28,785 nucleotides of DNA from Pseudomonadota bacterium (GTDB lineage Bacteria; Pseudomonadota; Gammaproteobacteria; Beggiatoales; Beggiatoaceae): NCBI GenBank assembly GCA_039797505.1, contig JBDKHS010000215.1:1-28785 (forward strand). The letters are read 5' to 3'. The notes under the pieces are model-generated. The model did not search any database and was not told the DNA's origin. It worked only from the letters and a program-made list of their open reading frames with translations. Within the stretch, counting starts at the first letter, position 1. The number at the start of each line of letters is the position of its first letter. Shown here piece after piece: positions 23,884-28,785 of this stretch. Position numbers and translations under genes: made by a program.

Positions 23884-24483
23884 TTGGCAACACGGGACAG
23901 CATTGTGGAAGAATTTATCCAAAACTATGGATATTTAGCGATTTTTATCGGTACTTTTTTTGAAGGCGAAACGATTTTAGTGGTGGGAGGAATTCTTGCT
24001 CAACAAGGTTTACTCGAGTTACCCCTTGTAGCACTTGCGGCGTTTGTGGGGAGTTTTTCGGGTGACCAGTTATTTTTCCAAATTGGGCGAATCAAAGGTA
24101 AAGCACTGTTAGATAAACGTCCTTCGTGGAAAGCGCGTGCTGAAAAAATTAACGATTTATTAGCACGTTATCGTGATTGGATCGTGTTGAGTTTCCGCTT
24201 TTTCTACGGTTTACGAAATCCCACGCCGTTTGTGATTGGCATGAGTAGCATCTCTACGATACGTTTCATGACGCTAAACGGTATTGGTGCATTCGTTTGG
24301 GCATTCACCATCAGCACCTTGGGCTATGTATTTGGTAACGCGATGGAAGCTTTTATGGAAGACATGAAACATTATATGCTCGAAGCGATAGCGGTGATTT
24401 TCATTATTGCAGGCTTGGTGTGGTGGTATGTTAATCGTAAACAATCTATCGTCTCTCCTCCCTCGCCGCCTGAAGAAAAATAA
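23884..24483 (+). CDS. DedA family membrane protein
   Basis: GTFFEGETILVVGG, GDQLFFQIGR, RFFYGLR and FMTLNGIGAFVW. GTG at 23905 is a plausible alternative start. Confidence 0.92.
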   Translation: MATRDSIVEEFIQNYGYLAIFIGTFFEGETILVVGGILAQQGLLELPLVALAAFVGSFSGDQLFFQIGRIKGKALLDKRPSWKARAEKINDLLARYRDWIVLSFRFFYGLRNPTPFVIGMSSISTIRFMTLNGIGAFVWAFTISTLGYVFGNAMEAFMEDMKHYMLEAIAVIFIIAGLVWWYVNRKQSIVSPPSPPEEK

Positions 24484-24523
24484 TTTTAAATAACTGCGGT
24501 GATTTCACCTTAAGGAATTGGTA

Positions 24524-24892
24524 ATGTTGAACCCGTTTTCACGTTTTTTAATCCTTCTGGGCTGTGGTTTATTCTTAGTTGCTTGTGCTGCAACGCCTGT
24601 ACGTCATGTGGGTTGTTATGTGGCTGATCCCGAATTGCGCGGTAAATATGTCGGGGCATGTCAAAATGGCAAAGCCCATGGTAAGGGAACTTCTGTGGGA
24701 CGTGACCGTTATGAAGGGCAATTTGTGCGGGGCGTTGTGCATGGTAAAGGTACTTATTACTGGCATGATGGCGACCGCTATACGGGCGATTTACGCAATG
24801 GCAGAGCGCAAGGCAAGGGCGTATTTATCAGCAAATCGGGTGAACGGAAGTCAGGAATTTGGGTCAATAATGTGTTGCAAACACCTGAATAA
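24524..24892 (+). CDS. MORN-repeat lipoprotein
   Basis: Lipobox LVAC, then YVGACQNGKAHGKG, YEGQFVRGVVHGKG and YTGDLRNGRAQGKG repeats. Confidence 0.85.
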   Translation: MLNPFSRFLILLGCGLFLVACAATPVRHVGCYVADPELRGKYVGACQNGKAHGKGTSVGRDRYEGQFVRGVVHGKGTYYWHDGDRYTGDLRNGRAQGKGVFISKSGERKSGIWVNNVLQTPE

Positions 24893-24909
24893 TCATAAGT
24901 TTACCGAAA

Positions 24910-25087
24910 TTAATGGCAGTGATGCGAGAGCAGCATGCGGTTTAAATCGTGTGAGACCTTCTAGGTTTTTAAAACCTAGAAGGATTTTGAATCCAGCGTA
25001 ATGAGGACTGGCAGTCCTTAAAATTCACACATTCCACGACTTAACACACTGGCTATCAGCTTAACTTAATAGCGGTGACGCGGGAGC
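24910..25087 (-). repeat. Family B composite repeat (reverse orientation)
   Basis: Palindrome ccttctaggtttt-t-aaaacctagaagg (24957-24983), aggactggcagtcct (25004-25018), and ttaatggcagtga-like motifs at 24910 and 25066. Confidence 0.8.
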
Positions 25088-25156
25088 GCGAAAACAAGGA
25101 AGTTTATCTTAAAATCAAAGCATTATAGGCTTGTGCAGCCTGTCAAAGCAGCGCAT

Positions 25157-25453
25157 TCAATTTGGCTCAAGCAATACCCGCACCGCTTCAAGTTTGTCAT
25201 TTTTTTGAACGACTTCATAAGAAACCGCTTGTCCCTTACGCACCACTTTAGACACCCCCTCAATCATGCTCACATGAAAAAAAATTTGTTCGGGTTCATC
25301 AGGGTTTGCGGGCTTGATAAAACCAAAGCCTGAATGGGGATTAAACCACTTCACTTTGCCTTGATGTAATTTTGTTGCCGCAACACAGCCTAAACTGAAT
25401 AAAATCAGGGTCAATGTCAGGCAAATCCTCCTCCAATAGCCTTGTGATTTCAT
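25157..25453 (-). CDS. Cold-shock-domain protein with N-terminal export signal
   Basis: [11 protein letters not shown]1-like SGFGFI and RNP2-like IFFHV, preceded by [30 protein letters not shown] overlap with the tsaD stop. Confidence 0.82.
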
Positions 25454-26493
25454 TTTATTGCCATCCTTGGAATTTGCAAATTGTGCAAGGCCCAGCGAGG
25501 TGTGGCATTAAATCCTAAGCTTGTGCGTTCACCGGCCGCCAAACGACAGCAACCTGCATAGGCGATCATCGCCCCGTTATCAGTGCAAAACTCAGGGCGA
25601 GGATAAAATACTTTCACTTTCATGCTGCTGGCAAGGGCAGATAACTGTTGACGTAAACGTTGATTTGCACCCACCCCCCCCGCAATCACTAAACGGGTCA
25701 AATGAGTTTGTTGCAAAGCACGACGGCATTTAATCACCAAAGTATCAACCACGGCATCTTCAAAAGCGCGCGCCACATCGGCACGAGTTTGTTCATCTTG
25801 CGAGGCTTGAGCTTTCCAAGTCGTCATGACCTGCGTTTTCAGACCGCTAAAGCTAAAATCCAAACCTTGCCGATTCACCATCGGGCGCGGAAAAGTAAAA
25901 CGCTTAGGATCGCCCTGTGTTGCCAACTTTGCCAACACCGCGCCACCGGGATACCCTAAACCCAAAAGTTTGGCTGTTTTATCAAAAGCCTCGCCCGCCG
26001 CGTCATCCACCGACTCGCCAAGAATTTGATATTGCCCCAAGCCCAATACTTTGATTAATTGAGTATGCCCCCCCGACACTAACAGCGAAAGAAAGGGAAA
26101 TTTCGGGGCAGGTTCTTCGAGCATTGCCGCTAATAAATGCCCTTCCAAATGGTGTACGCCAATTGCAGGCACGCCATAAGCCCATGCCAAACTGCGTCCA
26201 ACCGCCGCGCCCACCAATAATGCGCCAACCAGCCCCGGTCCTGCCGTGTAAGCAATGCCATCTAGTTGTTGGGGCAGGGTTTCGGTGGCGGTCAAAACTT
26301 CACGCACCAAAGGCAAAATTTTACGAATATGATCCCGAGAGGCCAATTCAGGGACAACACCGCCATATTGCGCATGAAGTTCGACCTGACTGTATAAACG
26401 ATGCCCTAATAAACCTTGTTCCAAATCATAAACTGCAACACCCGTTTCATCACAAGAAGTTTCAATTCCTAATACGCGCATATCTTTTTCCAT
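25450..26493 (-). CDS. tsaD: tRNA N6-adenosine threonylcarbamoyltransferase TsaD
   Basis: [55 protein letters not shown] and [10 protein letters not shown]. Confidence 0.97.
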
Positions 26494-26815
26494 TTCAATC
26501 AGCTAGATTGGGAAAAGTATAGCAACCTTAAGTGCTTACGTCATGTAAACCTTACAATAAAACTATGTTATTTAGACCTCATCTGCGTTATCATTTCTGG
26601 CTTTATCATTAAAACTCAGCAAAGTTATAGAATATCTCTTGGTTATTTTCAGCAGATTATGGACTAATATCTTGTTTTATCATGATTAAGCCCACGCGGG
26701 AGATATTTAAAAATAGATATACAAGCGGGGTGGTTTTGCTTATGCTTTAAACAAGTCTTTTCCCCTCCTAAAACCTATTTACCCAAAAAATTTAGGCTCA
26801 TAACTTTGCAAAACG

Positions 26816-28785
26816 ATGGCGCACGCTGCAATGAATGATTTCTTCATGCAAAGCACAAGCTTACTGAGTGTTTTAAACTTTGAAACACAATGGATAGCTC
26901 ATAATCCTGCGTGGCAGGCGGTTTTCGCTCAGGATGCGCTGCCCGCTTCGGTATTTTGCCATGTGCATCCCGCCGACCAGATTGCGTTGGGTGAGACATT
27001 ACAAACTTTAATAAAGGCTAAAGTCACCACTCAGCAGCTGAATCTGCGTTATCAAACAGTGAATCATGATTATCAATGGGTACAATGGGAACTCAATGCG
27101 CATGCTCACAGCGCACGACTGTATCTCACGGCACGCTTGCTAGAGATACCCAGTGAAATAGTGGCTTATCATCATTTACTCACACATTTACCGTTTGCTG
27201 CTGTGATAACCGATTTAACTGGTTATCCGCTTAGGATTAATACAGCCTTTACTCAGATGTTAGGTTATGAATTATCTGAATTGCAGCAATTGGGATTTAA
27301 AAAAATAACCCATTCTGAAGATGCGGTTTTTGAGCAGACACAATTCGACAGCTTGGTGCAGCGTAAACACCATTTTTTTCAGATGGAAAAACGCTATTTA
27401 CATAAAGATCAGCATCCACTGTGGGGACAGGTCACCATTTCCACCTTGGATGATGTCCAAGGGCAAGCCCGTTATTTTCTGATTCTGATTGAGAATATCA
27501 ACACTCGTAAATCCATCGAGGAGACTTTACGCCGCCGAGAAGAACGTTTCGATCTCGCAATGCGTGGGGTCAATCATGGGGTGTGGGATTGGAATCTGGA
27601 AAAGCAACAAATTTTCTTTTCGGCACATTGGAAGCGGATGCTGGGTTATAGCTCTTATGAAATTGGCAATCAGCTCATCGATTGGCAACGCCATATTCAT
27701 CCCGATGACTTGCCGATTGTGATGAATGATTTAGAAACTCATCTAAAAAATCATACCTTGCGCTATGAAAGTGTCTATCGGGTGCAACACAAACGTGGGC
27801 ATTATCTCTGGGTATTAGATCGTGGTGCGGCATTGCGCCAACCCGATGGTACGCCCTACAGAATGCTGGGCACGTATGTCGATATTACCGCCTACAAACA
27901 AAATGAAAAAATTTTAGAAGAAGCACGCACCTCGCTAGAACAAATTATCAATGCGTTACCGTTGGCGATTTTATTAAAAGATCGACAACATCACTGGCAC
28001 TTTTTCAATAATACCTTTTGTGAATTAACGGGTTATTCGCACGAGTTTCTGCTGGGTAAAACCGATTATGACATGGTGCCTGATGAAAACGTGGCAACCC
28101 AGTGTTGGCAGCAAGATGAAGAAATTTTTCTCACGGGGCGAGAAGTGACTTATGAGCAGCCCTTAATTGATTCACATCAGCAATTACACAATATTCTGGT
28201 GAAAAAAACGCTATACCGTGACCAATTACGGGGAGAAGATTTCGTTTTTTGCTGCATTACGGATATAACCCAGCGCAAACATAGTGAAGAACGTTATCGA
28301 CGCTTATTCAACAGCAGCAATGATGCCATTTTTGTGTTTCCTTTGAATGAGTTAGGCTTGCCCGAAGTTTTTATTGAAGTCAATGATATTGCTTGCACAT
28401 ATTTATGGCGTAGTCGTGAAAGTTTAATGACCCTCTCTTTACTTGATCTATTACCCACGGTCAGCATCAGCACGATTAGCCAGCATTTAAAAACGCTACT
28501 GCTGGAACAACACGCGCTTTTTGAATGCGATTTGATACGTGCCGACGAGCAAAGCATCGCGATTGAAATGAATTGGCAATTATTCGAGTTGGAAGGCAGG
28601 CAAACTGTGCTCGCGGTGGGGCGCGACATCACCAAGCGTAAAGCCGCAGAACGCAGTATTCAAGAGCGGGATCGCATTTTAGAAGGCATCGCCAATATTA
28701 CCCAGAAATTGCTGACCACTTTGGACTATGAGCAAGCGATTCGCCATGCTTTGGAGACGGTCAGTATTTTAATTGATGTCGATCG
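26816..28785 (+). CDS. Multi-PAS sensory protein (3'-partial; output domain beyond the window)
   Basis: Open frame from ATG 26816 to the window end, translated by hand. Five PAS/PAC units (HVHPAD, KITHSED, WDWN...HIHPDD...YVDIT, LGKTDYD...ITDITQRK, GRDITKRK), then a GAF-like start (ITQKLLTTLDYEQAI...DVDR). Confidence 0.92.
   Translation, partial: MAHAAMNDFFMQSTSLLSVLNFETQWIAHNPAWQAVFAQDALPASVFCHVHPADQIALGETLQTLIKAKVTTQQLNLRYQTVNHDYQWVQWELNAHAHSARLYLTARLLEIPSEIVAYHHLLTHLPFAAVITDLTGYPLRINTAFTQMLGYELSELQQLGFKKITHSEDAVFEQTQFDSLVQRKHHFFQMEKRYLHKDQHPLWGQVTISTLDDVQGQARYFLILIENINTRKSIEETLRRREERFDLAMRGVNHGVWDWNLEKQQIFFSAHWKRMLGYSSYEIGNQLIDWQRHIHPDDLPIVMNDLETHLKNHTLRYESVYRVQHKRGHYLWVLDRGAALRQPDGTPYRMLGTYVDITAYKQNEKILEEARTSLEQIINALPLAILLKDRQHHWHFFNNTFCELTGYSHEFLLGKTDYDMVPDENVATQCWQQDEEIFLTGREVTYEQPLIDSHQQLHNILVKKTLYRDQLRGEDFVFCCITDITQRKHSEERYRRLFNSSNDAIFVFPLNELGLPEVFIEVNDIACTYLWRSRESLMTLSLLDLLPTVSISTISQHLKTLLLEQHALFECDLIRADEQSIAIEMNWQLFELEGRQTVLAVGRDITKRKAAERSIQERDRILEGIANITQKLLTTLDYEQAIRHALETVSILIDVD

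Follow-up and report, generated by a model that had tools for sequence, protein, structure and literature searches.

The stretch of DNA analysed here (the "window", 28,785 nucleotides) contains a two-gene unit on its minus strand, in which a short cold-shock-domain gene, called "csp" below, follows tsaD. The features needed to follow the analysis are these (window coordinates; in sequence motifs throughout, a slash marks a predicted cleavage position):

25450–26493, minus strand: tsaD, encoding tRNA N6-adenosine threonylcarbamoyltransferase (Pfam PF00814, E = 2.6e-97), the upstream gene of the two-gene unit
25464–25468, minus strand: Shine-Dalgarno-like AAGGA, 10 nt 5′ of the csp ATG and within the 3′ end of tsaD, built on an AGG arginine codon
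25450–25453, minus strand: ATGA overlap of the csp start codon and the tsaD stop codon (TGA), an arrangement for translational coupling
25157–25453, minus strand: csp, pre-protein gene (predicted signal peptide plus cold-shock domain), 98 aa, stop codon included in the coordinates
25376–25453, minus strand: predicted Sec signal peptide, codons 1–26, with n-region MKSQGYWRR, an h-region and c-region VAA; predicted cleavage before T27
25385–25387, minus strand: TGT codon of Cys23, a possible lipidation site (SLG/C), invariant in the genus and absent in the relative P0011
25175–25363, minus strand: cold-shock domain (CSD), residues 31–93, a five-stranded barrel with RNP1 GFGFI and RNP2 IFFHV
24957–24983, no strand assigned: palindromic GC/AT hairpin in the gap where csp and the MORN-lipoprotein gene converge; no other terminator-like site follows csp

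An earlier note, made from the window sequence alone, had placed the csp start on the tsaD stop codon, and the ATGA overlap is indeed there. It had also stated that no ATG or GTG lies between the leader and the first β-strand, which is correct for codons 2–33 but needs two qualifications: a conserved in-frame TTG is present at codon 14 within the hydrophobic run of the leader, and a GTG at codon 34, the sole in-frame ATG or GTG 3′ of the csp start, sits in strand 1 itself. The window's GTG is preceded by AAGG, and gene callers have chosen shorter starts for relatives (P0008, P0009 and the Thioflexithrix protein P0170), so that the product might be read as a cytoplasmic Csp that really starts close to or at the domain, or as one with a hydrophobic extension that plays no part in targeting. 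However, codon 34 is GTG in the window only and GTT in both congeners examined (loci L007 and L008), so it is not the conserved start, and initiation at the domain (V34) was rejected. The shorter calls all begin inside the hydrophobic segment and are therefore artefacts. The ATG, the ATGA overlap and an AAGGA/GAGGG box on the AGG codon are kept in the window, L007 and L008, the same arrangement is found in three metagenome contigs (L078, L079 and L080), and down to 61% identity the 30 leader codons remain in frame, free of stops and hydrophobic. In addition, the cytoplasmic Csps of the window's genome are separate genes whose products have acidic to neutral pI values. We consider a protein that stays in the cytoplasm very improbable.

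The leader and the domain evolve differently. Among the three genomes compared (the window and the two congeners), the variable codons of the leader include 13 nonsynonymous and 5 synonymous ones and those of the CSD 7 nonsynonymous and 26 synonymous ones, and the leader has no indels, no stops and preserved hydrophobicity. Such fast but composition-constrained change looks like the pattern usual for signal peptides.

The regulatory surroundings of csp are otherwise plain. A promoter-like match at 25480–25452 ends on the csp ATG itself and therefore cannot serve csp. No cspA thermosensor, cspA-type 5′UTR or any other Rfam RNA was matched in positions 24400–26900, and a search for a terminator directly 3′ of the csp stop found that the 76 nt there fold no better than shuffled sequences. 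The convergent gene at 24518–24892 (plus strand) encodes a MORN-repeat protein of 124 aa that has a classic LVAC lipobox in addition to its N-terminal signal, and by these features it is predicted to be exported. A 22-nt element, TTAATRGCRGTGAYGCGRGAGC, is present in three copies on the plus strand (1230–1251, 24910–24931 and 25066–25087; 0 expected in shuffles), two of which lie in the intergenic region downstream of csp, and it may be a small dispersed intergenic repeat.

Bacterial cold-shock domains are known from textbooks as chaperones of RNA and ssDNA in the cytoplasm, and the identity of the domain in the csp protein is clear. Pfam CSD (PF00313) matches residues 31–93 with E = 5.5e-17 (61.8 bits, the cutoff being 27), and no domain besides it was found by Pfam at E up to 0.01. 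The AF2 model has strands at residues 30–38, 43–48, 57–60, 76–84 and 87–95 with pLDDT 91–96 over residues 30–95, and Foldseek gives TM scores of 0.82–0.87 to CspC, CspA and CspB (0.87 to CspC, 8h1i_B; 0.84 to CspA, 1mjc); sequence matches in the PDB were CspB and CspD at 2e-11, and an ESM Atlas search returned only sub-threshold CSD clusters and no structure. Like CspA, CspB and CspD (PF00313; 1csp, 1mjc and 6t00), with which it shares 38–45% identity, the protein has a single five-stranded CSD barrel of about 65–70 residues, which retains the GFGFI of RNP1 and the F-x-H core of RNP2. Unlike them it has a 26-residue Sec-type leader and, between strands 2 and 3, an insertion of 3 residues rich in Pro and acidic residues, and unlike CspA it lacks a cspA-type 5′UTR and is coupled to tsaD. 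No NCBIfam model was reached (the best, TIGR02381 cspD, gave 47.5 bits against a cutoff of 115.4), all NCBIfam Csp equivalog cutoffs (115 or more) being far above its score, and with this score and its hydrophobic leader of 26–30 aa it falls outside the CspA-family equivalogs (CspA/C/D/E/G). A retron or defence effector was considered and rejected: NCBIfam retron_eff_Se72 scores 26.6 bits against a cutoff of 82, and the PADLOC CSD_V match is a generic domain match (4.5e-9). The neighbours of csp are tsaD, the MORN lipoprotein gene and a gene for a VTT/DedA protein. The best structural match, CspC, was co-crystallised with the phage endolysin PlyGRCS (PDB 8h1i/8xyf), so CSDs can engage envelope-acting proteins.

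To compare binding faces we transferred Bs-CspB numbering onto the csp protein through a collinear cytoplasmic Csp used as a ruler, with a list of contact positions that we take to be those of the CspB-dT6 and RNA complexes. The csp protein retains W36, F43, F45, F58 and H60, the nucleic-acid-binding aromatics and histidine that had been noted earlier as kept, but the equivalents of three further contacts are lost: F30 is V61, R56 is D86, and no aromatic stands in place of F38, where the loop is one residue shorter. In motif terms, RNP1 (SGFGFI) has kept its aromatics and lost its Lys (the K13 equivalent), and in RNP2 (IFFHV) the last Phe is replaced by Val. Since the binding face is thus only partly kept, a single-stranded nucleic-acid binder is plausible but remains a proposal.

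The N-terminal leader has the three regions of a signal peptide, as the earlier note had described. Scored by a home-made n/h/c heuristic, which is not a trained signal-peptide predictor, it agrees with a Sec/signal peptidase I substrate (positive n-region, hydrophobic h-region, small residues at −3 and −1): the n-region MKSQGYWRR has a charge of +3 and is followed by an 18-residue uncharged hydrophobic run and a small-x-small site, VAA/TK, at residue 26, which is 7 residues before the VKWF of strand 1. Because lysines 28, 33 and 35 come after the run, the charge bias across it is less pronounced than that of the sister groups described below. The leader is kept in all eight full-length orthologues (P0002–P0007, 82–97% identical; L007, 87%; L008, 85%), and an exhaustive HMMER search found a further full-length relative, P0011 (95 aa, 61% identity), that keeps it too (MKCENLWRIGFLTLCLISSSFA/...) with an SFA/AS-type site and without a Cys at the Cys23 position. 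A Tat signal was rejected because the RR pair, which the twin-arginine motif (S/T-R-R-x-F-L-K) requires, is not conserved; it is present in the window, P0002, P0003 and L007, but P0004–P0007 have R-M and P0011 has R-I.

Two features of the leader would also suit an uncleaved signal-anchor, that is, a single N-in helix in the inner membrane with the CSD at its periplasmic face: the uncharged run of 17–19 residues in the csp protein and its close relatives (group A) is at the upper end for signal peptides, and the AF2 model, built on a 38-sequence alignment, has a helix over residues 4–17 (pLDDT about 58) that is detached from the barrel. Nevertheless, every member has a small-x-small site (VAA or AAA) immediately after the run, a helix-breaking S-L-G/S motif precedes that site, and sister groups have canonical ASA, AVA and AHA sites, all of which make an anchored form improbable.

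A lipoprotein is a more serious alternative. Here signal peptidase II would cut SLG/C, Cys23 would be diacylglycerol-modified, and the CSD would sit on a very short tether of 8 residues; with Val or Ile at +2 the membrane would probably be the inner leaflet of the outer membrane. Nine of nine close homologues, as well as L007 and L008, have kept Cys23 unchanged amid an h-region that varies, and position −1 is G or S, both of which are allowed; it is these two observations that keep the lipoprotein in consideration, and the invariant cysteine would fit it at least as well as it fits a signal peptidase I substrate. F-S-L-G-C also matches a permissive PROSITE-style lipobox pattern, and related lineages do switch signal type (P0172 has LVAC where its relatives have AHA/G, and P0194 and P0200 have lipoboxes). 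On the other hand, the strict lipobox consensus is [LVI][ASTVI][GAS]C, which Ser at −3 and Leu or Val at −2 fail; a tether that short would be unusual; the nearest outgroup, P0011, lacks a Cys at this position; and the nearest sister groups (B–E, J and K) all have signal peptidase I-type sites. The sites of P0011 and these sister groups, and their lack of the Cys, make cleavage at VAA/TK the most likely outcome, so that signal peptidase I is favoured over lipidation for the csp protein, although we judge that lipidation retains something over a one-in-four standing among the possibilities, in words a distinct but minority prospect.

The CSD of csp has exported relatives. Leader-bearing CSDs were found in 8 of the 27 sampled genera of the GTDB family Beggiatoaceae, including Thioflexithrix (G023, Thioflexithrix psekupsensis), and were sorted into groups; metagenome proteins added members to each group and three further groups, G, H and I, of which H and I have clear lipoboxes. 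According to the same heuristic, the n-region charge is 0 to +4 in all groups (0 only in group J), the uncharged run is 17–27 residues long (11 in group G), and an AxA-type site or a lipobox precedes the CSD in every group. This site lies 4–8 residues before strand 1 in groups A–E, H, J and K and 18–30 residues before it in groups F, F2 and L, again as scored heuristically. Like the csp protein, sister groups B–L (for example, at loci L009 and L004) have a signal peptide directly before one CSD, and most are basic; unlike it, they have clear AxA sites and no Cys, and they are only 28–35% identical to it. About a dozen sister groups have a signal peptide of classical form in this position, with textbook AxA-type examples in B–F, H, J, K and L, and together with the leader kept by the orthologues this makes the csp leader more than a chance pattern.

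The window's own genome contains a second exported CSD, which belongs to group F (G000 contig C171:5656–5976, equivalent to L004:1495–1815, minus strand). Its predicted signal peptide ends in an AHA/G site (MKKIVFRISLVSALLIGMPVLAHA/GGE...) and is followed by a linker of roughly 20 residues and then the CSD.

A maximum-likelihood tree of the CSDs only places 25 rows, from groups A–F, F2, H, J, K and L, on one side of a branch with support 93/79, and 28 cytoplasmic Csps together with groups G and I on the other; group A is nearest to group E. With an alignment of 66 columns and long branches, this support is suggestive and not firm, and fast-evolving exported CSDs may have been drawn together by long-branch attraction. 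Groups G and I nest among the cytoplasmic Csps, G keeping K13 and I keeping both K13 and the aromatic at position 38, which would fit a recent, independent gain of the signal. In a sample of 400 genomes of the class (321 genera), searched at E up to 1e-22, the only leader-bearing match was in the window's own genome; four candidates without in-frame stops are ordinary Csps with over-long open frames. At the sensitivity used, the lineage is therefore concentrated in this family.

The mature exported CSDs differ from cytoplasmic Csps in charge and in their contact residues. Their pI is 7.0–9.9 in 28 of the 34 validly scored proteins (about 9 for the csp protein), compared with 4.4–6.7 for 16 cytoplasmic Csps that include the three of the window's genome. 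Members of the main exported lineage retain W8, F/Y15, F/Y17 (Q in group D), F27 and H29; K13 is gone from every group but one, and the aromatic at 38 from every group. In group A, F30 has moreover become V/I and R56 D/N. From these comparisons the csp protein appears to belong to an undescribed lineage of basic exported CSDs in filamentous sulfur bacteria. The earlier suggestion of an exported or membrane-tethered Csp thus gains strong comparative support from the conserved ATG, the rejection of the internal start, the manner in which the leader evolves and this signal-peptide-bearing sister lineage, and we regard export of the csp protein by some route as very probable.

The genes around the exported CSDs were compared to see whether the link to tsaD extends beyond csp. 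The ATGA overlap of tsaD and csp that the earlier note pointed out is present in six of six group-A contigs with readable context, but all of these are from one genus, the sister groups are never beside tsaD, and a metagenome contig scan with P0011 as the query gave no match. In group B the CSD gene of Thioflexithrix lies tail-to-tail with comEC, in one genome only. In group F the CSD gene on C171 is directly upstream of a lone gene for type II secretion protein F (gspF), which is followed by a phytase-like gene, an order kept in two congeners and found only within the window's genus. Other groups adjoin genes for LptF/G, a TraB/GumN protein, a secreted trypsin-ricin protein, a resolvase or a phasin. 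No functional neighbour shared across the exported CSD groups emerged, and competence or nuclease genes are not consistently adjacent. Since exported CSDs stand in unrelated neighbourhoods, the coupling to tsaD says nothing about function. It is a genus-level accident of gene order, and it would explain the expression of csp (housekeeping and translationally coupled) and not what the protein does.

Taken together, these observations suggest the following course of events. The csp pre-protein and TsaD would be made from one transcript, their translation coupled through the ATGA overlap. The 26 N-terminal residues would act as a Sec-type signal peptide that carries the chain across the inner membrane; its hydrophobic h-region may steer it to the co-translational SRP route, which would be appropriate for a domain that folds very fast. 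Signal peptidase I would most likely cut at VAA/TK and release into the periplasm a basic (pI about 9) single CSD of 72 aa with an N-terminus like that of an ordinary Csp. This mature domain would most likely bind single-stranded nucleic acid or another polyanion through W36, F43, F45, F58 and H60, with a footprint that has probably changed, since the contacts equivalent to K13, F30, F38 and R56 are gone. We give this reading as a whole (a Sec-exported periplasmic CSD, cleaved by signal peptidase I, with a nucleic-acid or polyanion ligand) a probability of roughly 0.55, judged from sequence and model comparisons.

With respect to the ligand, the loss of contact positions means that it may not be nucleic acid at all. 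The exported barrel could have been repurposed to bind another envelope ligand, such as an anionic glycan, LPS, polyphosphate, a peptide or a partner protein, as unrelated periplasmic OB-fold proteins do; this alternative is about the ligand alone and could hold under either processing route. The lineage-wide losses at K13 and position 38, those at F30 and R56 in group A, the systematic shift to basic pI, branches that are long relative to those of cytoplasmic Csps and the inconsistent presence of competence or nuclease genes nearby are all in line with such a change. A basic surface favours nucleic acid binding as well, however, and nearly all groups show strong purifying selection on the platform of W8, F/Y15, F/Y17, F27 and H29, which is most simply explained by continued base stacking. 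We therefore hold a wholly different ligand to be a tentative proposal, less probable than a nucleic acid or similar polyanion.

A broader suggestion, which we put forward as speculative, is that the family keeps dedicated periplasmic single-stranded nucleic-acid chaperones, in the form of these exported CSDs, that handle DNA or RNA outside the cytoplasm. If so, they might, for example, bind single strands that come in or are scavenged and keep them at the envelope while nucleic acids are taken up or extracellular ones are used, and both the compartment and the role would be ones never shown for bacterial cold-shock domains. Two kinds of periplasmic protein offer a functional analogy only. BOF/YgiW proteins are small periplasmic OB barrels, whereas Pfam gives CSD alone for the csp protein, and ComEA is a periplasmic DNA receptor that binds dsDNA through helix-hairpin-helix motifs. 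Full-text literature searches found no paper on a Sec-exported bacterial CSD, the matches being to secretion of eukaryotic YB-1/DbpA or unrelated. The lineage implies either a periplasmic nucleic-acid or polyanion task that nobody has looked for or an ancient fold re-used for a new ligand, and the question is cheaply testable, as the mature protein is 72 aa long, contains a Trp reporter and should express easily.

The exported CSDs carry public names of the form "cold shock (domain-containing) protein". The NCBI record of P0170 (locus L009:1483–1779, minus strand, in Thioflexithrix psekupsensis) is a 78-aa "hypothetical protein TPSD3_04335" that starts in the signal peptide, while the full open reading frame encodes 99 aa; P0008 and P0009 likewise begin inside the signal peptide, and the feature is therefore hidden in annotation.

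Two further arrangements of cold-shock genes were seen during these searches. Two complete genomes of the family have tandem arrays of at least eight nearly identical 70-aa csp genes (G015:C2:4104596–4106666 and G046:C1:3814029–3815790). In another genome of the same class, a 226-aa open frame (L024; G032:C17:41973–42179) has N-terminal hydrophobic segments and a C-terminal CSD and adjoins an ordinary csp gene, and it is possibly a membrane-anchored CSD of another kind.
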